64,000 nt of DNA, taken from the NCBI GenBank assembly GCA_963727775.1, contig CAVSHB010000001.1:1344001-1408000 (forward strand). Reading direction: 5' to 3'. The number at the start of each line of letters is the position of its first letter. Within the stretch, counting starts at the first letter, position 1. Source of the stretch: an uncultured Nitrospiraceae bacterium. Lineage in GTDB: Bacteria; Nitrospirota; Thermodesulfovibrionia; Thermodesulfovibrionales; SM23-35. The notes beneath the pieces were generated by a model that saw nothing but the letters and a program-made list of their open reading frames with translations, did no database searches and had not been told where the DNA came from. Shown one piece after another: positions 14,091 to 31,229 of this stretch. A program made the translations under genes and the position numbers.

Positions 14091-14177
14091 GCCGAAGTGG
14101 CGGAACTGGCAGACGCGCTAGGTTCAGGGTCTAGTGGTCGAAAGGCCGTGCGGGTTCGAGTCCCGCCTTCGGCACCA
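14091..14177 (+). tRNA. tRNA-Leu (anticodon CAG)
   Basis: GCCGAAG/CTTCGGC acceptor stem, anticodon arm CTAGG-TTCAGGG-TCTAG, long variable arm, GTTCGAG T-loop, encoded CCA. Confidence 0.97.
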
Positions 14178-14648: not shown

Positions 14649-16298
14649 CCCACATAATTCATAAAATTTTGGCATATGAGATTATTGGTGGGTTTTTGAG
14701 TCAAACGAAGACAATAGAAGACTATTGCGAAGCAGTTTTATAGACGAGTCACGATCTGATCCCGTAAAATCAGACGGAGAAGGGCTTCGTGGCAGTTTTT
14801 AAGCGCACTTCACCATTGAGGACATTTCCTGTTGAAGTTTTTCCGTAAGAAAATGTTCAGGTCGTATCAGCAGCAAGCCGATGATATACTAATGCAAAGA
14901 TTTTCTTCCAGGGATAGCCACTGGCTAAGCGAAACCATACCCGTCGGGCTGTCTGGATTACCTGGGCTCCAATCTTCAGAAGCCTCAGCCTTAACTGCTG
15001 TATCTGCATTGAGGCAAATTCTGTTTTCTGAAGAGCTTCCCTGAGCCTCAGAACAAGCCAGTACGCCGCCATATGCAGGAAGAGTCTGAACTGGTTGGCA
15101 ACAAAGCGATGACAACTCAACCGGTCTGCCTTGAGCCCATTTTTAAACTCGTCAATCCGTACCTCACAGGTACCGCCACGCTCGGTGTAAAACTCATAGA
15201 GTTCTTTTGGTTCATAGGAGAGGTTGGTTACGACAAAACGACGGTTAGGTCCCTGTATCAGCCATTCAGCCTTCATGATAACCCGTCGCTCTTTCGGCCA
15301 ACTCTGCGCCTGATATAATCCCTCTGTAAACATCCTCTGTTTTTGTCCTGTTTCCGTATACTGCTTATGCGCTTTCTTGAGAATGGCTTCGATCATCCGC
15401 TCAAGCACATCATTACGGATCAGACCGATCATATATTTGAGACCCTCTTCTTCACAGTATTCATATAACTCTGGTACTGCAAATCCAGCATCGCCACGGA
15501 CGATGATCTCTGTTTTTGGAAACGCCTCCTTAAGTTTCGGAATGATCCGCTTGAGGATCGACACCGCTCCATAACTGGCATGCCGGTTACCAGCTCTGAG
15601 GGCCGCTGTTATCAGTTGCCCTGTGTCAGCATCGTAGATTACAAGCGGATGGTACATGTATTGGTCATAGTAGCCATGAAAGAACGTCAACTGCTGATTG
15701 CCGTATGTCGGATCGTCCGTCCCATCAAGGTCCAGAATAATCCTTTTTGGCTTTCTCTTCCGGTTCCGACGAATGTAAAGATTAATAAAATATTCTCCTA
15801 TCCTGTATAGATCGTTCCGGGTGATTGCGTTTTCCAAGCGTGACAAGGTGGGCTGTGAGCCAAGATCTTCATCGCTCAACTTCCGTCCACAGGCTGTCTT
15901 CAGTGCTGGATCTTTTCTTACTATGTTTGCATCGTTACAGTCCTCATACCCAGCAACGATTTGATATGTCCGCTGACGTAACAGTGTCTCCAGATTGTGA
16001 TCGGTGTAACGGTTGTCTCTTCGGTCTGTAATACATCCTGCCATCCCTGTTATCAACCGCAAAGCATTGTCTGCTTGCCTCACCAGCAACAAGCCCGAAT
16101 CAGAGGTTATCTCCCCTCCCTTAAAATCTACCGTTATTTTTTGCTTCCGTATGAATGAAAAGGTGAGCTGTTTTGTGATACACTCTGTCATATAGCCAAC
16201 CATCCTTTCTTTGGTTTTGAGCTCTCGTAAACTCAATAATACCAAAGGTCTTAGGATTGTTGGCTATTTTTTTAGGCAGAATTTATGAATAATCTGGG
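14649..16298 (-). mobile_element. IS1380-family insertion sequence
   Basis: Imperfect terminal inverted repeats cccacataattcataaa (from 14649) and tttatgaataatctggg (to 16298) flank a DDE transposase. Confidence 0.88.
14857..16191 (-). CDS. IS1380-family transposase
   Basis: FKGGEITSDSG, GYEDCND, SQPTLSRLEN, ILDLDGTDDPTYGNQQ, RGDAGF and RLSCHRFVANQFRL motifs. Confidence 0.95.
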   Translation of the reverse strand: MTECITKQLTFSFIRKQKITVDFKGGEITSDSGLLLVRQADNALRLITGMAGCITDRRDNRYTDHNLETLLRQRTYQIVAGYEDCNDANIVRKDPALKTACGRKLSDEDLGSQPTLSRLENAITRNDLYRIGEYFINLYIRRNRKRKPKRIILDLDGTDDPTYGNQQLTFFHGYYDQYMYHPLVIYDADTGQLITAALRAGNRHASYGAVSILKRIIPKLKEAFPKTEIIVRGDAGFAVPELYEYCEEEGLKYMIGLIRNDVLERMIEAILKKAHKQYTETGQKQRMFTEGLYQAQSWPKERRVIMKAEWLIQGPNRRFVVTNLSYEPKELYEFYTERGGTCEVRIDEFKNGLKADRLSCHRFVANQFRLFLHMAAYWLVLRLREALQKTEFASMQIQQLRLRLLKIGAQVIQTARRVWFRLASGYPWKKIFALVYHRLAADTT

Positions 16299-16374: not shown

Positions 16375-16974
16375 TTACAATGGATCTATTTCCTTTTCAT
16401 CAAAGCTCACTCTAAAATCGTGGATGCCTTTATAAAACGTATATCCACTGACTCTGTCCCTCTGGTAAACCGGTGTGAAGTCCAGAATGTTTGTCTTTCC
16501 TTCAATTAGGTTAATATCAATCTCCTTCTGGACATTTTCTTCGGTCAAAACCAAACAAATTTTGTAACTCCCAGCCTGAAGTCTTATCCTTTTTTCGAGC
16601 AAATACTTTACACCTTCGCCACCTTCAGGATTTCTTTTGGAATCTACAATTCTCTGCTGAGTATCGGGTTTGCCCTTTGCCATCCAGGTAACATATTGCC
16701 CTCCGATATTAAAAATAAAGGGGTATTCAGACTTGCCACGAAGGGACTGCTTCGACTCAAAGATGTAGTATCCTGCGCGAGGGGTTTTGATATTCGCCTT
16801 TATCAGAAGGTCTGCAAAACCCTCGTGAATAGGTTCCCCCGGCTTGATTTCTGCAAAGACGTCAGCTCTCGCGCCTTGACATTTACTGTAAATCTCCTTT
16901 GACGTGGTGCAGCACCCTGCAAGTGCAAATGCAAGAACCGCTGCACAAATAATTCCGGCCTCAAGTGTTCTCAT
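16375..16974 (-). CDS. Hypothetical lipoprotein
   Basis: Lipobox LAGC after a hydrophobic stretch; AAGGAG RBS; last gene of the metal ABC operon. Confidence 0.7.
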   Translation of the reverse strand: MRTLEAGIICAAVLAFALAGCCTTSKEIYSKCQGARADVFAEIKPGEPIHEGFADLLIKANIKTPRAGYYIFESKQSLRGKSEYPFIFNIGGQYVTWMAKGKPDTQQRIVDSKRNPEGGEGVKYLLEKRIRLQAGSYKICLVLTEENVQKEIDINLIEGKTNILDFTPVYQRDRVSGYTFYKGIHDFRVSFDEKEIDPL

Positions 16975-17010
16975 GAGAATGCTCCTTTGGTAAAGTTTGG
17001 TCCTTATCAT

Positions 17011-17901
17011 TTAACTCTTATGAGGGTGTCGTGAACCTCCGGGGAGAAGCCTGGCGACAATCCATGCTATTGCGTAAAGCACGCCGAGGAGGACGACATC
17101 CGTAGGGCCGACGGGGAAATCATATTGGTAAGCGATCCAAAAGCCGAAAAACGCGATCGCACCACCGACTAGCGAGGCCAACATAGTGAACTGGCGCATA
17201 TTGTGCGCAAACAGGTGAGCCATCAGCGCAGGGATAAGCAAAAATCCGAATGCGATAAGCGGGCCGACGCTGAGCACCGCCATCGAGACCGTTAGACCGA
17301 TAAGTATATAGAGCAGCACGTCCCAAAAAATAACGTTCTTGTGAAGTATAATCGCCATCTCGCGGTCGAACGAGACCAAGAGCAACTCCTTGTGGAACAG
17401 TGCAAGAGCCGCAAGTACCAGAGCAAGCGCTGCCGCCGTCAGCACGAGATCGAAATTCGAGATGGTGATGACCTCCCCTTTCAGCATATCGAGCCAACCG
17501 ATTTCGCCGTAGGGGTTCTTTGACAGCAGCAAAATGCCCAATGCGGCGGCCACTACGTATGCAGTGCCGAGCCGGCCTTCGGGTTGTCCGCGACCTTGTC
17601 GCTCCATAAACGCCAACGCCAGAATCGCGGTAAGCGAGAAGGTGATAGATCCGGCAAAGGCGAGCGCGTGAGCGCTGTGTGAACCATGATCTGCCAGATT
17701 GAATCCGAGCCACATGGGAAGCGAGAGCGCGATAGCGACACCCGTCGAAGAAATCTGGGGCAGTGCCACTCCCATGAATACCAGCCGGCGCATCACGAGA
17801 AACACACCGACGAGCGGGCAAGCGAAGCCGATGAGCACGCTGGTGTAGATCGAGTTCCTGAGGAGAAAATCCGGCGAGAGAATCTGATAAAGCGTTTCCA
17901 T
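17011..17901 (-). CDS. Zn/Mn-type metal ABC transporter permease (ZnuB-like)
   Basis: Multi-TM protein with GVFLVMRR, SFDREMA and LLIPA; adjacent to an ATPase and a solute-binding protein. Confidence 0.88.
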   Translation of the reverse strand: METLYQILSPDFLLRNSIYTSVLIGFACPLVGVFLVMRRLVFMGVALPQISSTGVAIALSLPMWLGFNLADHGSHSAHALAFAGSITFSLTAILALAFMERQGRGQPEGRLGTAYVVAAALGILLLSKNPYGEIGWLDMLKGEVITISNFDLVLTAAALALVLAALALFHKELLLVSFDREMAIILHKNVIFWDVLLYILIGLTVSMAVLSVGPLIAFGFLLIPALMAHLFAHNMRQFTMLASLVGGAIAFFGFWIAYQYDFPVGPTDVVLLGVLYAIAWIVARLLPGGSRHPHKS

Positions 17902-17902
17902 A

Positions 17903-18616
17903 TCAGTCGATCCTCCCTTCAAACATTTCGGCTATCCGTTCGGCTGTAAGCAGTTCGTTCGTGGTGCCGCATAGCACTTTGCCCTCGTGAAGCCATATGA
18001 CTTGCTCGGCGCCGCGTCGCGCCGCCGCAAAGTCGTGAGTGACGAGCAAGACCGTGATCTTCCTTTCCTTGCGAATCTGCGAGATGAACTCCATCACCGC
18101 ATGCGTCGCATTACGGTCCACACCCGCAGTGGGCTCGTCCAGCACCAGTACATCGGGGCGCGTGGTCAGAGCGCGAGCGATGAGCACGCGCTGTTTCTGG
18201 CCCCCGGAGAGTTCGGCAAAACGCTGGCGGGCAAACTCCTCAGCGCCCGACGCACGCAGGCATTCATACGTGAATGCGCGTTCGACAGGCGGGACAAAAT
18301 GCCCTGCGCGCACGCGTCCATATACGCCCATAAGGGCAACCTCGAACGCAGTCAGCAGATAAATCGAATCGAATTGAATGGATTGGGGTACGTACCCGAA
18401 TACAAGTGGTGCGCCCGCCGATGAGGTATCTATGCGGCCGCCTACCGGTGGAAGCAGTCCAAGCACCGTCTTGAGCAGGGTCGATTTGCCCGAACCGTTT
18501 GCACCGAGAATGGCTGTGAAACTGCCCCGTGCAATAGATAGAGAAATGCCGGATAGCACAGCCTGGTTGTTGTAGCCAATACTTAGGTTGTCCAGTATCA
18601 TAAGTGTTTCATTCAT
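17903..18616 (-). CDS. Metal ABC transporter ATPase (ZnuC-like)
   Basis: GANGSGKST, GYVPQ, LSGGQKQR, LDEPTAGVD and VTHD motifs; start taken at MNETL. Confidence 0.92.
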   Translation of the reverse strand: MNETLMILDNLSIGYNNQAVLSGISLSIARGSFTAILGANGSGKSTLLKTVLGLLPPVGGRIDTSSAGAPLVFGYVPQSIQFDSIYLLTAFEVALMGVYGRVRAGHFVPPVERAFTYECLRASGAEEFARQRFAELSGGQKQRVLIARALTTRPDVLVLDEPTAGVDRNATHAVMEFISQIRKERKITVLLVTHDFAAARRGAEQVIWLHEGKVLCGTTNELLTAERIAEMFEGRID

Positions 18617-18669
18617 AGTCTGTTGTGTGTGTCCGCCCGATATTTCAGGCGGACACGTTCTCCTTGTCT

Positions 18670-19602
18670 TTATTTCCTCGACTGGACGGCGGTAACCATC
18701 GTGTGAACAATATAGTCCATCATCTTGATGTACGTTTCCGTGTGTGGCACGCCGCCCGGCATGATGGGTAACGTTATCATGGTTGCACCGGTTTGCTCCG
18801 CAATGCGTTTCGGAACTTTCTCTGGGAACTGCGGCTCGCGCACAACAATAGGCACATACTGGGCTTTCATGGCGGCAGTCAGTTCCTCGATGTGACGTGC
18901 TGTCGGATCGATGCCCGGCCTCAGCTCGATCGTGCCGAAATAGTGCATGCCGAAGCGCTCTGCGAAGTATGGCCAATGCTCATGATAGGACACGAACTTA
19001 GTGCCCTTGAGCGGTTTGACTTCCTTCTCCCACTCGGCGATCTTGGCATTGAGCTTGGCGAGATACGCATCGCGGTTGTGTGTGAATTGCGCCTTGTCCT
19101 GTGGTGCGAACTCTACGAGCGCATTATAGATATTCTTAATCGCAGTCTTCGCCAATACCGGATCGAGCATGTAGTGCGGGTTACCGTAGGGGTGAACATC
19201 GCCGGCGGAGTGCTCGGTTGACTTAGGCACATCACGTGGGAAGATGCCTCTGGAGCAGTCCACGTAGCCGGACCTGCCTACCTGGATGCGCGGATTCTTG
19301 CTCGCCTCCAGCAACGCGGGCAGGAAGGCGTGTTCGCAATCAAACCCCACCAGGATCATCAGGTCGGCCCTGTTCATCATGGGCACGAAGCTGGGTTTCA
19401 TCGGCACGCCGTGCGTATCTTCAACGCCGGTAGCCAGGCTGTGGACCTCGACCAAATCCCCACCAACGGCGCGCGTAAAGTCTGCGAGATCGGTGAGTGT
19501 CGTTACAACACGGATTTTGGCCGCATGAGCCGGCATCACACCTATACAAAATACCCCGGCCAGAAAGATGATCGAGAACAAACAAAATAGTTTTGATTTC
19601 AT
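18670..19602 (-). CDS. Metal ABC solute-binding protein (ZnuA/TroA family)
   Basis: Signal peptide; VVTT, DTHG, DVHPYGNPHY and YHEHW..F metal-site motifs. Confidence 0.9.
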   Translation of the reverse strand: MKSKLFCLFSIIFLAGVFCIGVMPAHAAKIRVVTTLTDLADFTRAVGGDLVEVHSLATGVEDTHGVPMKPSFVPMMNRADLMILVGFDCEHAFLPALLEASKNPRIQVGRSGYVDCSRGIFPRDVPKSTEHSAGDVHPYGNPHYMLDPVLAKTAIKNIYNALVEFAPQDKAQFTHNRDAYLAKLNAKIAEWEKEVKPLKGTKFVSYHEHWPYFAERFGMHYFGTIELRPGIDPTARHIEELTAAMKAQYVPIVVREPQFPEKVPKRIAEQTGATMITLPIMPGGVPHTETYIKMMDYIVHTMVTAVQSRK

Positions 19603-19625
19603 ATTGACATTCATCCTTTCCATAT

Positions 19626-21110
19626 TCAGCGTTGCTGCCATCCATGCGAGTGTGAGCCGATGATCCACGCCCATTGCAGGTAAACGGCATTATCGGAGCG
19701 CAGACCGGATGCGACTGCTACGGCATTGCGGTCGGTGTATGTATATTGAAGCCGCAGTTGGTTCCAGTGGCTGAGCGCCCAGGTGATAAACGGAGAATAT
19801 TCGTAAGTCTTGGCTTTGTTGTCCTGGGCATCCTCCACAAAGCCAAACAAGAAGCCGGTTGACCACTGCCTGTGGAACTTGTAATTGAGATACGAGTAAA
19901 GGCCTAAGGAGCCGACAGACAGGCTGGACAGGGCGCTGCCCGAGGGATCCGTCATGTCATAACGGTTGCTGCTGTGAAGCACTTCAGTACCCCAGGTAAG
20001 GCTCTGGAACTGATTGTTACGGAGCGGCTTCCAACTGAGCGCCAGGTCTGCTCCTACCAGACGGCGCTCGCGTTCGGTGAACGTGCTGCCGGCTACCGTA
20101 GGAAACAGAGGATTAACACCGCCTGGGTCCGACCACTGTCCGGCCGTCTTTGGATTCCAGAGGCCTGAAACGCCGGATTCGAGTGAGATATCTGGTGTCA
20201 GATCGAAATATGTGGACAAGCGTCCAAAGTAATTCCAGCCGCTTAAATGACGGAATTGGCCAACATCGTTAGGTGGGTTGTCGCCTCCGAACTGGTTGCC
20301 AACGCCCACTGTCAGGTTGATATAATGCTCGACAGGCACCAACCAGTTGACCTGTATGCCGTCAGTCCTCGATTCGCCGCCTATGTATTGGGCGAGCACG
20401 AGTGGACGGTTCACGAAAGGCAGCTCATGATCGTGGATGTATGACAGCCGGCCGAACTCACCAAAGAACCGGCCCGCCTTCACAGTGAGGTTCCCAGGCA
20501 GCGACTCAGTCTGGAGCGCTGCCTCTTCGATACCAAAAGTCGACTCTCCGGTGTGGGCATCGACTGATGCGTTGGCCACTACATAGGCCTTCGCAAACGG
20601 GTCTACAGAAGCGGCCGCGTTTAGTTCCACGGAACGTTGGAATGCGTCGAACCCGCCGGGCCGGTCACTTCCCGTCTGCGCCGATCCCCTTCCGCGATAC
20701 GAGAAGAGCGTCTCACCCACGAGGCCGATAGAAGGATTGAAAACGCTCGGGACGGTCTTTGTCTGCGCCTCGGCCACCTGATCCACCTTCTCTTTCAACT
20801 CCTGTACCTGCTGCTGTATCTGCCCGGCCGCCAGCGGCGTCTCATTGACAGAGGCACTCTCGGTCGCTGCAGAAGGTTGGGTCTGTCTGACTTCAGCTTT
20901 CAATTCTTCTATCAACTTCCGTTGCTCAGCAATGGTTTGCTCCTGTTTTCTCAGGATTTCTTGAAGTCCTCTTATTTCCTTGATAGTTTGCTCTTGCTTC
21001 TTGAGGGTTTTCTCAAGAGCTTTTACCCGGTCTTCCAAGGTTTCAGCGAATACGCCTGTTGAAAACAATGACAAGATAAATAGCGTGATAAACATGCTCA
21101 TGATTTTCAT
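19626..21110 (-). CDS. Outer-membrane beta-barrel/porin of the type found with metal ABC operons
   Basis: Signal peptide, coiled coil, FNPSIG, SVDPF, IEEA, FGRL..IHDHELPFVNRP; C-terminal IGSHSHGW. Confidence 0.8.
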   Translation of the reverse strand: MKIMSMFITLFILSLFSTGVFAETLEDRVKALEKTLKKQEQTIKEIRGLQEILRKQEQTIAEQRKLIEELKAEVRQTQPSAATESASVNETPLAAGQIQQQVQELKEKVDQVAEAQTKTVPSVFNPSIGLVGETLFSYRGRGSAQTGSDRPGGFDAFQRSVELNAAASVDPFAKAYVVANASVDAHTGESTFGIEEAALQTESLPGNLTVKAGRFFGEFGRLSYIHDHELPFVNRPLVLAQYIGGESRTDGIQVNWLVPVEHYINLTVGVGNQFGGDNPPNDVGQFRHLSGWNYFGRLSTYFDLTPDISLESGVSGLWNPKTAGQWSDPGGVNPLFPTVAGSTFTERERRLVGADLALSWKPLRNNQFQSLTWGTEVLHSSNRYDMTDPSGSALSSLSVGSLGLYSYLNYKFHRQWSTGFLFGFVEDAQDNKAKTYEYSPFITWALSHWNQLRLQYTYTDRNAVAVASGLRSDNAVYLQWAWIIGSHSHGWQQR

Positions 21111-21209
21111 GATGGGACCTCCACCTTTCAGTTCTTACAATGAAAATGCACACGCAAATGGCTTGCACTTGACGCGTGACAATAAAATTGAATGTAGTAT
21201 TGTAAGAAC

Positions 21210-21518
21210 TTAAGCGGGAGGCGCCCGGCAGGTTAGGAGAGTAAGTCGTATGCAGTCATAAAGAAACGGCTTTGTCGGTACTTCATAATTAGAAACGGTC
21301 TGATGAATTGCAAGAGAAAAACTATTGATGCTTGCAGGAGAAAAGTGATGACCGGCTGCGCAAACAGGGCAATCGTGGTGGTCGATGTCGTTATCATGAT
21401 GATAGTGAAAAGCCGTTGCTAAGGTGGCGAAAAGGAAAAGGATTAAAAAGAGAAAGGTTAGTTTCCCTGTCTTTCGAGTACGGCCGTTTTCTAAGCGCAT
21501 TTTTCGAATCATCAGCAT
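21210..21518 (-). CDS. DUF2946-like leader peptide (TM, His/CxxC, C-terminal RAPP)
   Basis: Hydrophobic helix, HYHHDNDIDHHDCPVC, ends in RAPPA-stop; directly upstream of the porin gene. Confidence 0.8.
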   Translation of the reverse strand: MLMIRKMRLENGRTRKTGKLTFLFLILFLFATLATAFHYHHDNDIDHHDCPVCAAGHHFSPASINSFSLAIHQTVSNYEVPTKPFLYDCIRLTLLTCRAPPA

Positions 21519-21543
21519 CGTTTATAAATATAGAACAATTTAT

Positions 21544-21571
21544 ATTATGAACTTTTTACTCTTCATGTCAA
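21544..21571 (-). promoter_or_regulatory. Putative sigma70 promoter for the leader-porin-ABC operon
   Basis: Minus strand TTGACA-N16-CATAAT. Confidence 0.5.
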
Positions 21572-21596: not shown

Positions 21597-22343
21597 TTAC
21601 TTATTTAAACGAAATGCCACCGGTACCAGTACCCATTCGTCAATCGGGGTCTCCCCTTGACGCGCTGGAACAAAGCGCCAGTTTTTTACGGCCTCAGCAG
21701 CGGCATTATCCAAAAGTTTGTAACCAGAGGAGCGGGATATATCAATTTTAACTGCTTTTCCTTCCCGGCTTACCAGCACCTTCAACGTCACTACTCCTTC
21801 CATTCCCATTCGTCTGGCCGAAGCAGGGTAGGCAGGTTTCGGATTGTTCAAATAGGCAGCACCAAACTGGGGAGGGATAACCGAAACAGTAGAAGTACTG
21901 GGTGAGACTTGAGGGTAGATTTGAACAGAGGGCTGGACGGTATTTGATGCCGCTTTATTGCCGGACGGCAAGCTTGTTTCAGGCACTGAAACAGTAGGCG
22001 TGGAGATGGACGGAGCGAGCGTCTCAACTTTGGGCTTAACCTCAGAGGTAGGCGGGCTCGTCGGTTGTTGTATTGGAGCGGGTGTTTGCGGCGGCGATTG
22101 GTGTATCGGCTTGGGCCTTGAAGGTATCGAAACAGCTGTGTGCTTGGCTGGCAACGGCAGCTCAATGAATTGCGCATCTATGGGTTCTAATGACTGGGAC
22201 TGCTCGGCTATCTGTCCCAGCAGTAGCCCGAATCCCCATAGCATCACTCCCCATATCAGTAGAGCCGTTAACAAAACCCAAGGCAGACGCTGCCAAGGGT
22301 TATCGATATCGGCAGATTGACGTGACAAAAAGTCTCTATTCAA
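21597..22343 (-). CDS. tonB: TonB energy transducer
   Basis: N-terminal TM, Pro-rich linker, C-terminal domain YPASARRMGMEG and SSG..LLD.AA..AV..WRF.PA. Confidence 0.9.
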   Translation of the reverse strand: MNRDFLSRQSADIDNPWQRLPWVLLTALLIWGVMLWGFGLLLGQIAEQSQSLEPIDAQFIELPLPAKHTAVSIPSRPKPIHQSPPQTPAPIQQPTSPPTSEVKPKVETLAPSISTPTVSVPETSLPSGNKAASNTVQPSVQIYPQVSPSTSTVSVIPPQFGAAYLNNPKPAYPASARRMGMEGVVTLKVLVSREGKAVKIDISRSSGYKLLDNAAAEAVKNWRFVPARQGETPIDEWVLVPVAFRLNK

Positions 22344-22740
22344 CGTACTTCACTGCAATCAGAAAATGTTCTGCTCCTGCATGGCGGGCCTCGAGCATGG
22401 CTCGTACCACCACTCCTTCCGGTGCTGCACTATCTGCAGCAACAATGATGTGACCATCCGAATCCTTTAACATGGGATGTAAAGTTCCGGCCAGAGCGTT
22501 AAGCGTCACAGGGGTGCTGTCTAATAAGATTGCGCTCTCCTTAGTCACAGTCAGTGTTACCGGGGTTCTGGCCTGCATCGGTGTAGCCTTGCCCTGTGGA
22601 AGATCAATGGGCAGGGAATGGAGTTTTTGCAAGGCAAGTGACGCAAGCATAAAGGTTGCCAGAAGGAAAAACATTACGTCAATCATAGGTATAATTTCTA
22701 TGCGCCCTCGACGGGACTGCCGGGACCTACGTAGTCTCAT
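22336..22740 (-). CDS. exbD: ExbD/TolR family protein
   Basis: IEIIPMIDVMFFLLATFM motif. Confidence 0.92.
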   Translation of the reverse strand: MRLRRSRQSRRGRIEIIPMIDVMFFLLATFMLASLALQKLHSLPIDLPQGKATPMQARTPVTLTVTKESAILLDSTPVTLNALAGTLHPMLKDSDGHIIVAADSAAPEGVVVRAMLEARHAGAEHFLIAVKYVE

Positions 22741-23386
22741 GACCACCTCCATTCTTTTCCTGATCCATTCGGATATGATCTACCAGTCGTGTACCAAGGC
22801 GTTCCATTTCATCCATAGTCCTGGATTGCAGGTGCGCAAAGAAGTTAAATGCAAACAGGGCAATAAGGGCAATGATAAGGCCAAGAGTGGTCGCTATTAG
22901 CGCTTGGGCCACTCCACCCGTTATTCCGGTTGGATTTACCAGCCCGGTGCCGCCAATCAACTTGAATGACTCCATCATGCCTATGATTGTCCCTACCAGA
23001 CCAAGCAGTGGCGCCGCAGTCACGATGGTCTCCAACACCCAGAGCCCCCTGTTTAAGGCCTTTTCTATCAACTGCGCCTCGTCTGCAGCACGAGACTCTA
23101 CCCACCAGGCAGGGTTAGCGCGGTTGTCCAGGATCACCTGGAAGAAACGTCTGAAGTAGTTTCCAGGCACAAAAGACTTTATCTGCTCGTCCAATTCTGT
23201 CCATGCAAAACTATAGGTCTCCACCAGTACGAGCAGCGAGGCAGACAGCTTGACATAACGCCTATATACGAACGCCTTATCTATGATAATAGTAAGGGCT
23301 ATAATCCCCAAAAGCAACAGCGGATACACCATCATACCGCCGAATTGCAGGGCCTTTAATGAATTAGAAAAATCGTGCATATTCAC
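22727..23386 (-). CDS. exbB: ExbB/TolQ/MotA proton channel
   Basis: APLLGLVGTIIGM and GVAQALIAT..GL motifs. Confidence 0.92.
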   Translation of the reverse strand: MNMHDFSNSLKALQFGGMMVYPLLLLGIIALTIIIDKAFVYRRYVKLSASLLVLVETYSFAWTELDEQIKSFVPGNYFRRFFQVILDNRANPAWWVESRAADEAQLIEKALNRGLWVLETIVTAAPLLGLVGTIIGMMESFKLIGGTGLVNPTGITGGVAQALIATTLGLIIALIALFAFNFFAHLQSRTMDEMERLGTRLVDHIRMDQEKNGGGHETT

Positions 23387-23424: not shown

Positions 23425-25530
23425 CTAAAAGTAGTATATGACGCTTAGGCGAGCGGTAATCGGTTCTACCGGTTTAAAGTGTCTATCATTTACGCCCTGC
23501 AAGGGCTCCCCCGGCAGCCTGGAGGTATAATAATACGCAATGTCGCTGGCCTTGCTATTGAGTAAGTTCAACCCTTCCAATTCCATCGTCAAGTGCTTAG
23601 AGAATTTGTACCCTATTTGTGCTTCCACCAGGGTTGTGGCCCCTTCATGTTGGCTGTTGTCCTCTATAAGCGGGTACCCTCCAAGATAGCGCACCCTCAA
23701 GGATCCAAAATACGGACCTATATCATGTATTGATACACCCAGGGACCCAACACCTTGAACTGCGCCGGGTATATAATCTCCAACGACGCCGGGAACTTGC
23801 GGACCCGTAGAGCGGGCCTTGGTATATGCATAATCCAAGTCAATCGTTAACCAAGGGGTGGGGGTATAATAGTTGGCAAATTCAAATCCCGTCCGCAGGC
23901 TGGGACGGCCCGGCGAGGTCTCACCGCTATCTCCGTCCCACTGAAGTTCTGAGTCGAAATGCAACTGAAAAAATGTCAGTGAACTCTGAAGCTTTGGAAT
24001 GATAGCAGTGCGTGCGCCGACCTCATATCCCCTGGAACGTACCAACGGCGCAACTCGTTGATTCGGGCCCGCCGTTGGGTCGCTTATAGGAACCGAGGTG
24101 TCGATAGTGCTACGGGCGTCATTACTGTGAAAGCCCTCTCCCGAGTTGATATAGAACTCTGTCTTGGCCCAAGGACCGAATATCAAGCTTAACTTGGGAT
24201 TTACCATGCTGGCGGATGTTCTCCCCGAATTGGCGGTCACGCTTTTGTCGCTTATCTGCAAAAAGTCAACGCGGACACCAGCTTCGGTACGAAACTTTTC
24301 AAACCAATGGAAAGTGTTTTGAAAATACGCTGCTTCGCTGGATTCGACCACGTGGTCGTCCCGCCAAACAGTAAGAACTTGACGATCTTCAGTATGGTTA
24401 AGACCGACATGAATATTGTCATTTTGCAGTTGTATACCTACTTCATTCTCCACCTCATGTCCAAACCATTTGCCAGTCAAGGTATGGCTGGCGTTTAATG
24501 CGCTCATTGTTCTCTTGTCATGCTGTTCAAATTGATCCCCATGGATAGGGTCATCAAGAAAATAGGTGAAGTTTGAATATAACTCCATCGTCTTGTCGAT
24601 AAAATAGAGATTTGCTTTGGTAACGGAATTACCGGTAGTATGCTGCCAGGCCCCGGATAGACTGTAACGGCGAGTATAAGTGAAGTCACTTGGGTCAATA
24701 TAGCCGAAACGCGATATTAAACCCTCGGTTACTGCGCGTTCGGGAATCTGGTTAGTGGCTACCCCCTGGCTTGTATACGCCATTGCAGAGAAGGTAAAGC
24801 GGTCTTGCCCTTCAACTATAGTATAGCGCAACACTCCATTGACTTTTCGGAAGTCTGCGGTATTGGTCCACGGGCCATCGTTATGTATGTATTCCATAGC
24901 CCCGAGAAGGTTTCCTCCCAACAGCTTCATCGAGTCGGCAACAAGGCCGCGCTCATAACCCTGAAATCCCACGGTCGTCTTGGCCATCCCCTGATCCAGA
25001 GTATCTACATAGTTGATGTCAATGGCGCCTACAGAAGAGAAATCCCCGTACTCAGCATAGTAAGGCCCTTTTCTATATTGCATGTTGCTGATGAGTTCGG
25101 GTATCATGAAGTTCAAATCGGAATATCCCTGGCCATGCGCATTAGTGCGTTCATTGACTAACATGCCATCAACGGTAATCCGCAGGTCCGTACCGTGATC
25201 GAGATTAACACCCCTGAGAAAATATTGGTTGGCCTTTCCTTCTCCACTGTGCTGGGTCACGATCAGTCCCGGTGTTACTTCCAATAATTCGCCAATTCGG
25301 TTGTAAGGCCGCGATTGTACCTCCTCCCTCGGGACGGTCCCTTCATTTGCAGAGTCAGCTGTGCCGATCAGATTTTCGGTGGTATCAGTGACCACCACTT
25401 CCTGCAAAGTCTGGATACCGCCAGCGTTGGCCAATGAGACAAAAATCAAGCTAAGTAGCACCACGAATAATTTAGAACAGACTCGGGTCGTTCTCGGTGT
25501 GACATTAAATCGTGCGCGGGGTCTTCTCAT
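23425..25530 (-). CDS. TonB-dependent outer-membrane receptor (probably metal uptake)
   Basis: TonB box LQEVVVT, plug motif QHSGEGKANQYFLRG, C-terminal Phe; AGGAGG RBS. Confidence 0.9.
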   Translation of the reverse strand: MRRPRARFNVTPRTTRVCSKLFVVLLSLIFVSLANAGGIQTLQEVVVTDTTENLIGTADSANEGTVPREEVQSRPYNRIGELLEVTPGLIVTQHSGEGKANQYFLRGVNLDHGTDLRITVDGMLVNERTNAHGQGYSDLNFMIPELISNMQYRKGPYYAEYGDFSSVGAIDINYVDTLDQGMAKTTVGFQGYERGLVADSMKLLGGNLLGAMEYIHNDGPWTNTADFRKVNGVLRYTIVEGQDRFTFSAMAYTSQGVATNQIPERAVTEGLISRFGYIDPSDFTYTRRYSLSGAWQHTTGNSVTKANLYFIDKTMELYSNFTYFLDDPIHGDQFEQHDKRTMSALNASHTLTGKWFGHEVENEVGIQLQNDNIHVGLNHTEDRQVLTVWRDDHVVESSEAAYFQNTFHWFEKFRTEAGVRVDFLQISDKSVTANSGRTSASMVNPKLSLIFGPWAKTEFYINSGEGFHSNDARSTIDTSVPISDPTAGPNQRVAPLVRSRGYEVGARTAIIPKLQSSLTFFQLHFDSELQWDGDSGETSPGRPSLRTGFEFANYYTPTPWLTIDLDYAYTKARSTGPQVPGVVGDYIPGAVQGVGSLGVSIHDIGPYFGSLRVRYLGGYPLIEDNSQHEGATTLVEAQIGYKFSKHLTMELEGLNLLNSKASDIAYYYTSRLPGEPLQGVNDRHFKPVEPITARLSVIYYF

Positions 25531-25644
25531 AAAATCTCCTCCTGAAAAATAAAAAATAAAAAGCCACAAAGGCATTGTCTGCTATATATAATTCCTTCCA
25601 TATTGCCTCTCACAATTCATATTGAATGTTGCATTCGCCACTGT

Positions 25645-25845
25645 TCAACTGATCATCCTTTTGGCTTCTTCAAAGCGTCTGTTCAATCTTTTATGCTCCA
25701 TATAAAGCCTTACGAGTGTCCTTAACAATTCTTCATTACCAATAGAAGAGACCTTTTCCGCCCAGTCCATGTAAATCTTTGCGTGCTCGTTGTTATGCTC
25801 CGTCCAGTAATTGAGCAACCTTTTGAGTTTTTCCAGTTGTTCCAT
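25645..25845 (-). CDS. Small helical protein with a W..HN..HA..Y..WA motif (putative metal binding)
   Basis: GGAGG RBS, 66 aa, LLNYWTEHNNEHAKIYMDWAEK. Confidence 0.7.
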   Translation of the reverse strand: MEQLEKLKRLLNYWTEHNNEHAKIYMDWAEKVSSIGNEELLRTLVRLYMEHKRLNRRFEEAKRMIS

Positions 25846-25854
25846 GAGTCCTCC

Positions 25855-25908
25855 AAATAAAAAAGCCATGAAAGATCACCTTCGGGTGAAATGCCTTCAT
25901 GGCTTTTT
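25855..25908 (-). terminator. Intrinsic terminator/attenuator in the receptor operon leader (unit 2)
   Basis: mRNA AAAGCCAUGAAGG...CUUUCAUGGCUUUUUUAUUU immediately before the RBS. Confidence 0.75.
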
Positions 25909-25999
25909 CTGAAATGTTCTTTAAATGTTTTTTTGTTTCAGCCCTTCAGGGCTTTTGAATCTTCAGCAGCGCCTTTTCAAAAAGCCCTCTTTCCCGTCG

Positions 26000-26061
26000 A
26001 AAATAAAAAAACCCCGAAAGCTTTTTGACCTGCTGGTCATTTTTTAAGCCTTCGTGGCTTT
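26000..26061 (-). terminator. Intrinsic terminator/attenuator in the receptor operon leader (unit 1)
   Basis: mRNA AAAGCCACGAAGGCUU...AAGCUUUCGGGGUUUUUUUAUUUU. Confidence 0.7.
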
Positions 26062-26119
26062 AATTCCTGATATTTCTTATAAAACAGCTTAGACTCTGAA
26101 CTTCATGTTCGGATAATTT

Positions 26120-26149
26120 AACATACCCCAAAATACAGAAATCCGTCAA
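26120..26149 (-). promoter_or_regulatory. Putative sigma70 promoter driving the leader and receptor operon
   Basis: Minus strand TTGACG followed by TATGTT at about 18 nt spacing. Confidence 0.5.
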
Positions 26150-26235
26150 GCATTTTTTACAACCCTTCGCGGTAGCGTTGAGTCGTGCTACTCCACCACT
26201 CTAAGCATTTTCACTTAAATACCCATTACGTTTAT

Positions 26236-26493
26236 CTATTTGTGCTTGTGGATTTCTTTCGCGTGTCCGGGATGCTTATGTTCATGAGGTCCGTGTTTGC
26301 CCGCATGCTCATGATTGTGAACCTCGGCTTTGCCTTTATGGTCATGTTCATGGCTGTGCTTATGCGGGTGCTCGTGATCGTGCGCGTGGGAATGTTCATG
26401 ACTATGTTTCTCGTCCTTGTGAAGATGCTCGTGGTCGTGAGTATGAGCATGCTTATGCGCATGCTCATGTTTGTGTTCATGTTCACCTTTCAT
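26236..26493 (-). CDS. Histidine-rich small protein (33 His in 85 aa)
   Basis: AGGAGG RBS before ATG 26493; alternating HxHxH pattern. Confidence 0.8.
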   Translation of the reverse strand: MKGEHEHKHEHAHKHAHTHDHEHLHKDEKHSHEHSHAHDHEHPHKHSHEHDHKGKAEVHNHEHAGKHGPHEHKHPGHAKEIHKHK

Positions 26494-26608
26494 AATAAAT
26501 CCTCCTATCAGATTGGTTGATTATTTCTTAGAATCCTGATCCGTCTGACGATATGGCATGGTTCTCAGCGAAACATAGGCCCTCCTATACTCTTGAGGAA
26601 AAGGTCAT

Positions 26609-26803
26609 CTATACTGTAACTGCCTCCACACAGTCTTGCCTCCACAGGCAATTTAACTGATCACACTCATTAACAGAGTGAGTCGCAAAACAATCGGAAT
26701 TTCCCTCTGCCCTCTGTATGTCCCTGATCAATTTTGTCTTATTCATATTCCCAGCCTTGATGCCCATCCTCTTTGCTATTTCTTTAATTTTCTCTTTTTC
26801 CAT
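26609..26803 (-). CDS. Small SAP/Rho-N-like protein with four C-terminal Cys
   Basis: IKEIAKRMGIK..NMNK..LIR.IQRAEGN.DCF....CDQ.NCLWR.DC; GGAGG RBS. Confidence 0.75.
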   Translation of the reverse strand: MEKEKIKEIAKRMGIKAGNMNKTKLIRDIQRAEGNSDCFATHSVNECDQLNCLWRQDCVEAVTV

Positions 26804-27029
26804 AAGACATCCTCACCTCCTTTTTTCAGTCTATCACCAAAAAAGGTAATACACAAATTACCCAGTGAGCAAATTGTTATAGCCGTGCGCCGCCGAAATA
26901 CTTACGTGAATGGCCTACCCGATCGAATAATGGTCTTTTCTTGAACAACTGTCATTTATGCTGTAAGCTTTATATTATAGGAATTATAATGGTAACCCAT
27001 GAATGAGGGTCACCAATAGGAGGTACATA

Positions 27030-27149
27030 ATGGAAAAAGCGCAACACAAGAGTTTTAGCAAGCCGGATGAGATTCGTAAGTTTCCAAAGGGACGACTTGA
27101 AGTTGTAGTTGATTTTCAGGGTATGATCGATTACGCAAAAACGAAGTAG
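27030..27149 (+). pseudogene. Internally deleted cupin-family gene (N- and C-termini fused)
   Basis: AGGAGG RBS; 39-aa ORF MEKAQHKSFSKPDEIRKFPKGRLEVV-VDFQGMIDYAKTK resembles both ends of a small cupin family; recognised from memory. Confidence 0.6.
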
Positions 27150-27207
27150 ATTTTCCTTAGTGGTTTGTCAAAAAGGGTCTCGAGTGACAAGGGAGAATGG
27201 TTAAGTC

Positions 27208-28162: not shown

Positions 28163-29905
28163 CTACTGAACTTTTACCATGAAATCGAAGAGAAGCACCG
28201 TGCCCTGATGGTTCACTTGACTGAAGATCTTATAGACACCTTTGACCGGAAAAACCACGATGGACTCTATCTCCGGTCCGAATTTTTCTCCAGGCTCGGC
28301 GTGCATGTGCATATGATCCATATGAGTGTGAGACTCCCCGGGAATAACACCGTGAGCATGAATGAACTGCTTCAGGTCTGCAAGCACAATGGCGAGGTGC
28401 ATCGGAGCACCTAAATATGGACTTAGATCTGCCACAGGTTTCTTGTTAGACTTAATAAGATATCGGAGTCTTGTCTCCTTGCCCGCCTTGATGATATCAG
28501 GGGATATTTTTAGTGTGACATGATATGCTCCGAAATCTTTCTCCGTGGAGAAATCTAGCTTCGGCTCTCCCATTCTCAGCTGGCTGGAGACTTTAATATG
28601 TGCTGTTTTACTGTAAAGCCCGTCCGCCGTTGCGAAGTCGAGTCCAACTAAATATTCTCCAGCCTTCGGGAAAGTGAAACGTAGCGGGAACGTTGCCTTC
28701 TTCAGCATCTCATCGGTTACAGGGCCTATATCTTCAGGATGTATATGCGCAAAGACGTTTAGATCGCTGCCTATGACAATAGCGTGGAGAATTCTTTCAT
28801 GATGAACCGTGAGCCCTTCAAGCGGCTTTCCGTTTTGCCCTTCGATGTGAACTGTCATCTTTGCACGTGTTCCCGCCTTAATATCTGAGGGGCTTGTCTC
28901 AAGGTGTATGACAGGTTCAGGCCCTGTATTAGCATAATGCTCGTGTTGACCGCCCTCATTACTGGCATGATTCCCCATGGTCATAGCATGTTCGATGTGC
29001 ATAAAATGTCGTGCGGGTATATTATGTGTAAGCAAGCCGGCGCATAGAAACACTCCTGATATGATGATTGCCTCAACACGCGTCCTATGAAGAAACTTCA
29101 TGGCAAATGCCGATTCATCCTGACCGTGCTGCGGAGGAGCAATGTATCTAAAGGCAAGAAAAAGGAGCAGCGCAATCTTCGCGGAAAGCACTCTTCCATA
29201 AGGAGTTGTAAAGAGTAACCCGAAACTTCCGACTTCAACCCAGGCATTATAGAGTCCGGTGAAAACCAATAGGGACAATACAGGGCCGAATAAAACATAA
29301 AATCTGTCAGCAATACCGGATACAATAAGCTGTTGCCTGCTATCCTCCGCAATAGTAGAGGGTCGGAAAATGATTGCTATGGCTATGAGTGCCCCACCCC
29401 AGAGTGAAGAGGCCGTAAAATGAAGCCAATCCGAAAGCTCCATCAAACTCAAGTCACCTAAGTCCGCAGCGTGGCTCGTCGCGCTACGTGAAAAAGCGAT
29501 GGCTGCGGATGCGCATAGCAGAAAGACTGCGACTAAGCGGGAATTCAGATGCCGCCTGCCGACAAACCACACAATCAAAGCCAGTCCGAGTCCACCTGAC
29601 CGAACTATTCCGATTCTCCCGTAGTGTGTCTTTAACAAGACGGTGGATAGTACGGGAAAGATCGCTGCGATGCCAAGACCGCTCATCTCCATGGTACGCT
29701 GTATAAAATTGCTGATGCTGCTTATAACCAGCGCAATCAAACAGAGCATGAGCAATCGCCGTAGCCTGCCGACAAACGGCGGAGAAGTGTCTTCAGCAAC
29801 CTTTGAGTGTGCAGTCCAAAAAAGGCATAAGGCAACTCCAACCAAGGTTGTCAATGCCGTAATGTCTATAAATGTTACTATGCTATGCAAAACCGTTTGG
29901 ACCAT
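28163..29905 (-). CDS. CopD-family inner-membrane protein fused to a His-rich periplasmic domain
   Basis: SHAA, WLHF...LWGG, TGLYNAW and TTPYGRVL motifs; C-terminal repeats FAHIHP / FIHAHG. Confidence 0.82.
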   Translation of the reverse strand: MVQTVLHSIVTFIDITALTTLVGVALCLFWTAHSKVAEDTSPPFVGRLRRLLMLCLIALVISSISNFIQRTMEMSGLGIAAIFPVLSTVLLKTHYGRIGIVRSGGLGLALIVWFVGRRHLNSRLVAVFLLCASAAIAFSRSATSHAADLGDLSLMELSDWLHFTASSLWGGALIAIAIIFRPSTIAEDSRQQLIVSGIADRFYVLFGPVLSLLVFTGLYNAWVEVGSFGLLFTTPYGRVLSAKIALLLFLAFRYIAPPQHGQDESAFAMKFLHRTRVEAIIISGVFLCAGLLTHNIPARHFMHIEHAMTMGNHASNEGGQHEHYANTGPEPVIHLETSPSDIKAGTRAKMTVHIEGQNGKPLEGLTVHHERILHAIVIGSDLNVFAHIHPEDIGPVTDEMLKKATFPLRFTFPKAGEYLVGLDFATADGLYSKTAHIKVSSQLRMGEPKLDFSTEKDFGAYHVTLKISPDIIKAGKETRLRYLIKSNKKPVADLSPYLGAPMHLAIVLADLKQFIHAHGVIPGESHTHMDHMHMHAEPGEKFGPEIESIVVFPVKGVYKIFSQVNHQGTVLLFDFMVKVQ

Positions 29906-29915
29906 ACTGTTAACC

Positions 29916-30287
29916 TCATTTAATTACGAATGTATAATCGCCCATGGTACGGTGCCCATCCCTCGCTACGACGCTCCAAAACACATGATAGGTTCCTCCC
30001 GGCAGCGGCGGCAAGCTGACTTCGAGCAACGTTGAGTTGGACGGATCTACCCTTCCATTCCCTTTGTCTATTTTTTTCCCGCCTGCGTCTTGAACAGCAA
30101 TCGTGCTGAATACAGGTTCCAGATCGCCATCGAACCAGATACGGACAACAGATGGGGAACCGGAAACCGTTGCCCCCACCTTCGGGTCTGAATGGTCAGG
30201 AAAAACATGCCCATGAGACACTCCCGGAAACAGCAGGAACGCAAGAAAAAATAACGAGGCCATTGTCCTGAGCTTCATGACTTGCAT
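29916..30287 (-). CDS. copC: CopC periplasmic copper-binding protein
   Basis: Mature N-terminal His (GH.FP..SDP), WFDGDLEP.FS and WSVVARDGH.T.G.Y.F motifs. Confidence 0.9.
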   Translation of the reverse strand: MQVMKLRTMASLFFLAFLLFPGVSHGHVFPDHSDPKVGATVSGSPSVVRIWFDGDLEPVFSTIAVQDAGGKKIDKGNGRVDPSNSTLLEVSLPPLPGGTYHVFWSVVARDGHRTMGDYTFVIK

Positions 30288-30293
30288 TGTATA

Positions 30294-31229
30294 TCAGCGA
30301 AAAATCGGCCCTCCTATACCCTTGGGGAAAAGGTCATCTATATACAAATGAATCAGGCCGAGAATGCCGACGTTTTTCCCTGAATTCGAGTTGATCGGGA
30401 TTTCCGCGGCGACACCAAACTCCATGAACTTGCCGCACCAGACGATTCCCGGATTAACCGTTCCAGTCGTCTGTCCTTTACCATCCTGTGATAGGTTTGT
30501 CTGCATGGGGAATTCGGTCACAATGATCATACGGTTAAACGGAACGCCGAGTCCGATATCTTTCACGAACGATTGGAGGTATATCAGACTGTATTGAAGG
30601 GTGAAGGCCCAGTTAAAGACGGTTGGATTGCGTTCTATACCTGTGTCCGTGACATTCTTGCTCCGCGTGGGGAAGCTCGTTCCGATAACTCCAGTGATTG
30701 CGAAAGGCCTTAGGAAATTGACCGATTCGGGCAGGTCACCCAATCCCTTTCCAAAGAAGATGGCCGGGGTAATGGTTGAAAAAGAATCCGATACCTGGTG
30801 CGCTCCCGTTCCGCCAATATCGATATCCGTGCCTATCGAGAGGATCAGTTCGTGAGGCTCGTTCGTAAGGAACTGCCATTTCGCGCCAACGCCAAGATTA
30901 TCCCAGCCGTTTGCTGAACTGCCGTCGTCTGCCCGATTGTGCAGGTACGCTTCATGAAATTCGAGCCCGAAGTTAGGAACAATACGTTTGGAATAGTCGA
31001 TATCTATTTCCGTGGTCTTTGCATCGGTTCCCTTCACGCGGTTAATCAGGATCGAAAACTCATCGGAAATAAACGGGTCATCAACCTGAAATGTGGTAGG
31101 GAAAAACCTCTTACCGGCAAACCCGTGGGCAAATGAAGATACCGGCGTCAGCAGAATTAACGATATGCTGAGACCGACGGAAAGCCACAACCATGCTGCA
31201 GATATGCTGCGAGATAAAGCTTCGCTCAT
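30294..31229 (-). CDS. Putative outer-membrane protein upstream of copCD
   Basis: Signal peptide ending FA-HGFAGKRFFP; alternating beta-strand pattern; GGAGG RBS. Confidence 0.7.
   Translation of the reverse strand: MSEALSRSISAAWLWLSVGLSISLILLTPVSSFAHGFAGKRFFPTTFQVDDPFISDEFSILINRVKGTDAKTTEIDIDYSKRIVPNFGLEFHEAYLHNRADDGSSANGWDNLGVGAKWQFLTNEPHELILSIGTDIDIGGTGAHQVSDSFSTITPAIFFGKGLGDLPESVNFLRPFAITGVIGTSFPTRSKNVTDTGIERNPTVFNWAFTLQYSLIYLQSFVKDIGLGVPFNRMIIVTEFPMQTNLSQDGKGQTTGTVNPGIVWCGKFMEFGVAAEIPINSNSGKNVGILGLIHLYIDDLFPKGIGGPIFR

Follow-up and report, generated by a model that had tools for sequence, protein, structure and literature searches.

The leader of a likely nickel-uptake operon in an uncultured Nitrospiraceae bacterium contains, twice in series, an RNA element that is a real, uncatalogued variant of protein-dependent attenuation. 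In each copy a small hairpin doubles as the 5' arm of an intrinsic terminator, and the element is almost certainly a genuine cis-acting attenuator. The reading given modest preference here is that these are tandem default-off terminators, at which a protein, likely DUF3842 together with the nickel-binding CooT, would allow read-through at low nickel. The mutually exclusive folds, the covariation, the nickel-type gene context, the co-occurrence with DUF3842-cooT and the near-exclusion with NikR are all observed, and from them the reader and the direction of the response are inferred. Nickel import has to be controlled in anaerobes that depend on NiFe hydrogenases and CO dehydrogenase, and NikR is absent from about half of the sampled Desulfobacterota and from 57/57 host-family genomes (the control search was positive in 5/14), for which the element offers a concrete, testable answer. 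No description of it was found in literature searches, in the accessible portions of the main texts PMC11109978, PMC8632094, PMC5737381 and 10.64898/2026.10.21.760802, or in those of an antiterminator review (PMC12591593) and a delta-proteobacterial regulon paper (PMC545781); an obscure prior listing, for example in supplements, is possible. New here are the swap with NikR at this receptor, the tandem copies in relatives and a variant that blocks the ribosome site.

The window is the whole stretch of 64,000 nucleotides that was analysed, and the region concerned (25545-26150) is read on its minus strand (Table 1). After a promoter-like site come about 270 non-coding nucleotides, followed by a 66-aa ORF, a TonB-dependent receptor, exbB, exbD and tonB. 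The two hairpins of each unit and a third right arm, which the initial annotation had recognised from the letters alone, all lie where it placed them, and its counts of 51 and 49 nt between the GAA cores are correct. Computed folds also bear out its view that the second hairpin of each unit is a terminator 5' arm and that the two folds exclude each other: the minimum-energy fold takes each second hairpin as the 5' arm of a terminator of 11-13 bp, followed by a U-tract. The leader as a whole folds at -85 kcal/mol (z -4.4), a stability reached in 0/200 shuffles. Across the 3.43-Mb genome, unit 1 is the only place where two C-NYGAA-G hairpins follow each other at a distance of 25-80 nt. Scored with the family covariance model, the core hairpins of units 1 and 2 reach 41 and 48.8 bits, respectively, each copy being itself part of the model's alignment.

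Table 1. Features of the leader and its operon in window coordinates.
Feature	Position	Strand	Remarks
Putative sigma-70 promoter	26120..26149	-	9/12 consensus matches
Unit 1 upstream hairpin P1, GAAC-AUGAA-GUUC	26098..26110	-	loop AUGAA; close to predicted transcript start
Unit 1 core hairpin P2, GCC-ACGAA-GGC at 26048-26058, longer stem AAGCC-ACGAA-GGCUU	26046..26060	-	doubles as 5' arm of terminator 1
Unit 1 nested hairpin P3	26027..26038	-	loop AGCA; inside terminator 1
Terminator 1 3' arm (one mismatch) and U-tract	26005..26021	-	computed fold
Unit 2 extra upstream GAA-loop hairpin P0	25971..25985	-	similar hairpins, with altered stems, in L003, L036 and L041
Unit 2 upstream hairpin P1	25940..25953	-	UGAA tetraloop, 5-bp stem
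Unit 2 core hairpin P2, GCC-AUGAA-GGC	25893..25903	-	doubles as 5' arm of terminator 2
Unit 2 nested hairpin P3	25876..25889	-	loop CGAA; inside terminator 2
Terminator 2 3' arm and U-tract	25859..25874	-	immediately before ribosome-binding site 25850-25854
66-aa DUF8180-family protein, first gene under the leader	25645..25845	-	Atlas best match 0.91, PF26551
Relic 3' arm and U-rich tract of a decayed third unit	25553..25573	-	without 5' hairpin; 9.4 bits, E 2.3
TonB-dependent receptor, likely for nickel	23425..25530	-	79-83% identity orthologues directly behind nikR
exbB, exbD, tonB	21597..23386	-	ORF and domain search

Several details of the initial annotation changed on closer inspection. 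The hairpins it named are real, but its listing omitted the nested P3 of each terminator and the extra hairpin P0 of unit 2, and the first hairpin of unit 2, drawn there with a hexaloop, is better folded as a 5-bp stem with a UGAA tetraloop. The sequence of the third, degenerate right arm is present; however, it has no partner arm, folds no better than shuffles (z +0.79) and scores only 9.4 bits (E 2.3) with the covariance model, and is thus a relic, the third unit being without terminator function. The proposed promoter does not rise above chance in a scan of the window (6 promoter-like sites against 5.3 expected), whereas across the family a -35-like box stands 28-55 nt upstream of the first hairpin in 55/157 copies, against 8/157 in a control window; before unit 2 no such box was seen. 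The small His protein supposed to be controlled by the leader is not the gene directly behind it, which encodes the 66-aa DUF8180 protein (without a match in the Pfam copy searched). Instead, an 85-aa His-rich ORF lies upstream of the promoter (26236-26493, minus strand), and a similar ORF sits downstream of DUF8180 in the relative G022, indicating that gene order around the leader has been shuffled. Its product is possibly a nickel store.

The element recurs in the phyla that had been suggested for a covariance-model search, namely Nitrospirota, Desulfobacterota and, as Clostridia, Firmicutes. A strict pattern (GCC-AYGAA-GGY, a spacer and a complementary arm) matched in 22/57 genomes of the host family within the Nitrospirota, with 0 in the reversed control, and looser patterns matched in 52/271 genomes of the Desulfobacterota, taken as the phylum of a Desulfosarcina genome (control 0), and in 14/271 genomes of the Clostridia, the class to which Terrisporobacter belongs (control 1). 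Scanning the genome collection gave at least 124 stretches, mostly from Desulfobacterota, Nitrospirota and Clostridia, including a few chance matches without a U-tract, while a structure scan gave 173 copies, against 2 in its reversed control. Culturable carriers include Sporomusa ovata, Eubacterium callanderi, Terrisporobacter mayombei and Desulfoluna butyratoxydans, and tandem units are also present in the relatives G022, G043, G052, G068 and G069. The host genome itself has a third copy (G000 C4:311472-311528, equivalent to L061:8473-8529), which stands directly behind a promoter, without P1, and precedes a porin-like gene and cbiM/nikM-N-Q-O. A DtxR/MntR-like gene is convergent to that operon.

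Compensatory changes, which the initial annotation had suggested looking for, are found in both the hairpin and the terminator. They were assessed in an alignment of 92 of the 173 copies, made up of 13/19 stem variants and 79/154 common ones and leaving out 6 atypical or reverse-strand stem variants. Terminator pairing is kept in 95.8% of cells of this alignment, with 72 double changes, and P2 pairing in 99.3%, the outer pair being G-C in 60 rows, G-U in 19, A-U in 9 and C-G in 3; since the rows were chosen partly for terminator pairing, the P2 covariation is the less biased result. In addition, the pyrimidine of the loop, a position that had been left unconstrained, changes together with its partner in the terminator arm (C-G 81, U-A 55, U-G 12, C-A 3 and A-U 1; n=152). 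The terminator is the minimum-energy fold in 151/152 copies and lies a median of 12.6 kcal/mol below the fold in which P2 is forced.

The unit described by the initial annotation, a conserved pair of hairpins, survives as a conserved attenuator, but its invariant part is a single hairpin within the terminator. An upstream GAA-loop hairpin P1 was found in 62/146 copies, compared to 6/146 in a control window and a shuffle mean of 2.4, and several promoter-proximal copies are without it. When P1 was anchored on its loop alone (37/105 copies), stem positions 2-4 were paired in 84, 70 and 76%, against 53, 42 and 50% at control anchors; the sequence of these stems is free to vary while the pairing is kept. 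The loop-to-loop spacing between P1 and P2 is mostly 40-60 nt, with a range of about 30 to 70 nt, and a nested P3 with a GAA loop is present in 44/150 copies. AYGAA, AAGAA, UGAA and AGAA loops are found. Only about 11 nt are conserved, and the invariant core does not differ among three phyla.

At four loci (L003, L006, L007 and L011), a variant without a U-tract lies between DUF8180 and a receptor-like gene. Its second GAA hairpin forms about 13 bp with the ribosome-binding site of that gene, suggesting control of translation, and it is likely a translational form of the same switch. Separately, the leader of a cold-shock protein gene contains a terminator-like hairpin (G000 C2:398910-398944 in L322; also L332 and L334) that is conserved in three family genomes. 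With a weak model score and without the GAA loop, it resembles an attenuator of another kind.

No Rfam family matches the element. Nothing relevant came from searching the window together with 18 homologous loci at the gathering score, or from searching 25300-27200 at E up to 10; the best score was 21.4 bits against a cut-off of 59. The initial annotation recognised neither a NiCo nor a cobalamin riboswitch, and neither Rfam model matches in the window. Like the NiCo (czcD) riboswitch RF02683, the element would control metal transporters at the RNA level via a terminator. The NiCo riboswitch is built on a four-way-junction aptamer and turns on exporters; the element, by contrast, heads importers. 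RF02683 had no match in the homologous loci either, and a search of the whole genome was also blank, its control having matched nowhere. Matches to the cobalamin riboswitch RF00174 in L063, L106 and L125 are located away from the element. Two exclusive conserved folds with the terminator as computed default are what is generally expected of a protein-dependent antiterminator.

The initial annotation's comparison with ANTAR antitermination, as a shared logic in a different target, is upheld. According to the part of PMC3369931 available, the targets of EutV, NasR and AmiR are small stem-loops in which loop and closing pair are conserved and of which the downstream one overlaps the terminator 5' arm; they are off by default, and there are several copies per regulon. 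The element has all of this in common with them, its default-off state being predicted. However, ANTAR targets have six-base loops with A1 and G4 and, in the Enterococcus faecalis eut leaders, a linker of 5-12 nt (PMC3369931, same part), whereas the element has loops of 4-5 bases ending in GAA, and its P1 and P2 loops stand mostly 40-60 nt apart. P2 and P3 are close together, but only 44/150 copies have the GAA loop on P3. Also unlike ANTAR targets, the element has a nested third hairpin, and ANTAR itself was rejected as the reader, PF03861 being found in 0/57 family genomes including the host by a search that was positive in 5/5 other genomes. Attenuation by HutP and PyrR is similar in that a ligand-controlled oligomeric protein would choose between terminator and read-through (for HutP, PMC12591593 in its searched text). 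HutP recognises NAG triplets in single-stranded RNA and detects histidine with Mg, unlike the hairpin loops that serve as RNA sites here, and neither nickel nor cobalt occurs in the searched text of that review (PMC12591593). The nikMQO-type importers among the target genes are shared with delta-proteobacterial NikR regulons, in which, according to the part of PMC545781 available, NikR represses by binding DNA at an inverted repeat; the element instead acts on RNA, and mostly where NikR is missing (NikR in 5/52 element-positive Desulfobacterota).

The attenuator is very probably gated by a protein. In the proposed mechanism, P1, P2 and often P3 would fold while the RNA emerges, after which the 3' arm would invade P2 via its loop and transcription would terminate. 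Binding of at least two C-(N)N-GAA-G loops by an oligomeric protein would prevent this invasion, and nickel-loaded CooT would turn the reader off, restoring termination at high nickel. Two units in series would leak less and respond more sharply.

Judged mainly from patterns of co-occurrence, DUF3842, with or without CooT, is probably the antitermination factor. Among 271 Desulfobacterota genomes, the element is present in 52, DUF3842 in 101, NikR in 131 and CooT in 151, with DUF3842 and NikR together in only 13. The 52 element-positive genomes include 50 with DUF3842 and, by hand count, 51 with CooT. Within the 140 NikR-negative genomes, the element occurs in 45/88 with DUF3842 and in 2/52 without it, where related genomes are not independent, so that P values come out too strong, and a shared nickel lifestyle could also be the source of this co-occurrence. 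In Clostridia, 12/14 element-positive genomes encode DUF3842 and the two others have atypical matches (one genome, G440, was left out of this count). In the host family, DUF3842 is encoded by 51/57 genomes and CooT by 50/57, the adjacent pair being located away from nickel enzymes. DUF3842 lies within 4 kb of the element in 11/72 loci, and cooT likewise in 11/72. Furthermore, the element stands directly upstream of DUF3842-cooT in L070, L079, L211 and L290, as expected of autoregulation; no element lies upstream of the pair in the host genome. Three other candidates were set aside: a 64-aa Cys-containing ORF of the window (0/72 element loci; not favoured), DUF8180 (4/72 loci, with many homologues lacking the element) and CooT alone (in 151/271 genomes, of which about 52 are without DUF3842 and only 2 of those carry the element, by hand count).

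The attenuator might instead be protein-gated and nickel-linked but read by another protein, DUF3842-CooT being only a nickel-handling pair of the same regulon, which is unlikely but deserves the most attention among the alternatives. DUF3842 is commoner than the element: the strict pattern is absent from 51/101 Desulfobacterota and 81/93 Clostridia genomes with DUF3842. The covariance model, with 150 candidates scored per genome, gave strong matches (32-47 bits) in 4/10 retested genomes with DUF3842 but no pattern match; in 5 genomes with NikR but without DUF3842, no score exceeded 25.1 bits. Element variants thus account for only part of the pattern-negative genomes. In 20 pattern-negative DUF3842 neighbourhoods of Clostridia, there were three CCC-stem variants before cbiM/nikM genes, and several DUF3842 genes stood alone amid unrelated genes. 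Features of the proteins also count towards another reader. DUF3842 and CooT are not basic (pI 4.6-8.0 in 11 sequences), and domain searches, PDB sequence searches and Atlas gave neither an RNA-binding domain nor a solved relative for DUF3842; the PDB search returned nothing under E 0.7, with ribosomal protein uL1 as its non-significant top row. The conserved glycine-rich loops of DUF3842 could be a nucleotide or enzyme site, and PyrR shows that an enzyme fold can serve as a reader. CooT matches PDB 6fan and in the host retains Cys2, through which CooT, a nickel chaperone, binds nickel tightly (PMC6006190, in the part available). Cross-genome profiling covered DUF3842, CooT, NikR and ANTAR only. 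Against another reader, the only other regulator-like family to reach three of the 72 element loci is a histidine-kinase cluster (4 loci), genomes without DUF3842 rarely carry the element even where NikR is missing too, and the DUF3842-CooT pair is kept in 50-51/57 family genomes apart from nickel enzymes.

With DUF3842 and CooT as the preferred reader, a fuller model can be offered tentatively, at somewhat less than even confidence: the two proteins would form an RNA-acting nickel sensor, whose metal-free form grips several GAA-loop hairpins and antiterminates (or, in the variant, frees the ribosome site), and which nickel-loaded CooT turns off, as a substitute for NikR in many Nitrospirota, Desulfobacterota and Clostridia. 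If so, it would be a transition-metal-sensing antiterminator, DUF3842 would gain a function and CooT a second role, and most CooT proteins would become sensors rather than CODH chaperones.

The signal metal is most likely nickel, and the attenuator is in all likelihood nickel-linked. The enrichment upstream of metal genes that the initial annotation had envisaged is found before Ni/Co uptake genes. The ORFs in first or second place behind 71 element loci (98 proteins) include CbiM-family permeases, NikA/B-like ABC parts, TonB receptors, ExbB/TonB, porins, methyltransferases, FmdE, DUF4198, LarE, LarB and DUF3842-CooT. When the 72 loci with a U-tract were clustered, TonB receptors (19), family-5 binding proteins (15), NikB-like permeases (12), CbiM/NikM (11) and FmdE (9) were found. 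The CbiM-family proteins led by the element start with HIPDG (9), HIPDN (4), HMADA (3) or HISEG (3), and the sole HIMEG protein is not element-led, having a cobalamin riboswitch upstream at its locus. HIPDG-type proteins are presumed here to prefer nickel and the HIMEG type cobalt. At one locus (L125), a cobalamin riboswitch precedes one cbiM-family gene and the element the other. A few copies lead unrelated genes (GntR regulator, hydrolase, GDT1, PFL-like), and one (L114:3135-3920) leads a DmeF-type Co/Ni exporter, a misfit with a simple rule of off at high nickel.

The receptor points in the same direction. Among its homologues, a NikR-like ORF (recognised by motif; one confirmed by Pfam) is present in 15/74 loci and lies directly upstream in L218, L219, L220 and L228; nikR is directly upstream of three orthologues of 79-83% identity, and in L223 (61% identity) the RNA element takes its place. 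The same receptor family is therefore under either NikR or this RNA. The host genome also encodes NiFe-hydrogenase-family and CODH/prismane-family genes. At the leader, no paired NikR operator was found, only a half-site-like stretch at about 26185-26191. A short inverted repeat at 26172-26191 (minus strand), whose first half resembles half-sites behind nikR in the receptor orthologues, is possibly a relic operator in a genome without NikR. If nickel is the signal, the element marks uncharacterised genes (TonB receptors, porins, methyltransferases, FmdE and DUF8180) as nickel-related and may be of use in acetogen engineering as a part that responds to nickel.

It is improbable that the signal is cobalt, zinc or metal status in general. 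The annotation of CbiM-family genes names cobalt transport, the window has a ZnuABC-like cluster behind tonB, and the one exporter-leading copy concerns cobalt as well as nickel; however, the receptor family adjoins NikR, larE/larB and cooT are among the targets, the element and NikR nearly exclude each other, and L125 divides its two cbiM-family genes between the cobalamin riboswitch and the element.

Slightly less probable again is a riboswitch in which docking of the GAA-loop hairpins would create a direct sensor for a metal ion or metabolite, in the manner of guanidine-II riboswitches, which consist of two ACGR hairpins. The repeated similar loops, the classic terminator platform and the identical core in three phyla would suit such a switch. 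Against this, the roughly 11 conserved nucleotides are few, P1 is absent from over half of the copies and varies in its spacing (about 30-70 nt), the GAA loop of P3 is restricted to 44/150, a ligand would have to offset about 12 kcal/mol, a ligand-on switch is a poor fit for nickel import, and there is no Rfam riboswitch match. The element is better explained by a protein as the gate than by the metal itself. It is very improbable that these are ordinary terminators, constitutive or bidirectional, which merely damp read-through, since, despite the stable terminator fold and a score of 28.1 bits for unit 2 on the opposite strand, the elements stand just behind promoters and before uptake genes, and compensatory changes have preserved both P1, which stands free, and the alternative pairing in P2.

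Other features of the window surround the operon. The 64-aa ORF (26609-26803, minus strand) has a basic N-terminal part and four Cys in its C-terminal part; it has no Pfam or NCBIfam match and resembles small proteins of the SAP/Rho-N type. Downstream of tonB, a region of the minus strand (16375-21570) contains a separate promoter-like site, a 102-aa His/Cys ORF, a porin-like protein and the ZnuABC-like transporter, and a znu-like cluster is also found near a receptor homologue in L217. A transposase gene (DDE_Tnp_1_4; 14857-16245, minus strand) lies near a tRNA at 14091-14174, and the metal cluster may be within a rearranged region. In the other direction, a CopC/CopD-type copper cluster with a His-rich CopD fusion (28163-31229, minus strand) adjoins a SCO1/SenC gene.
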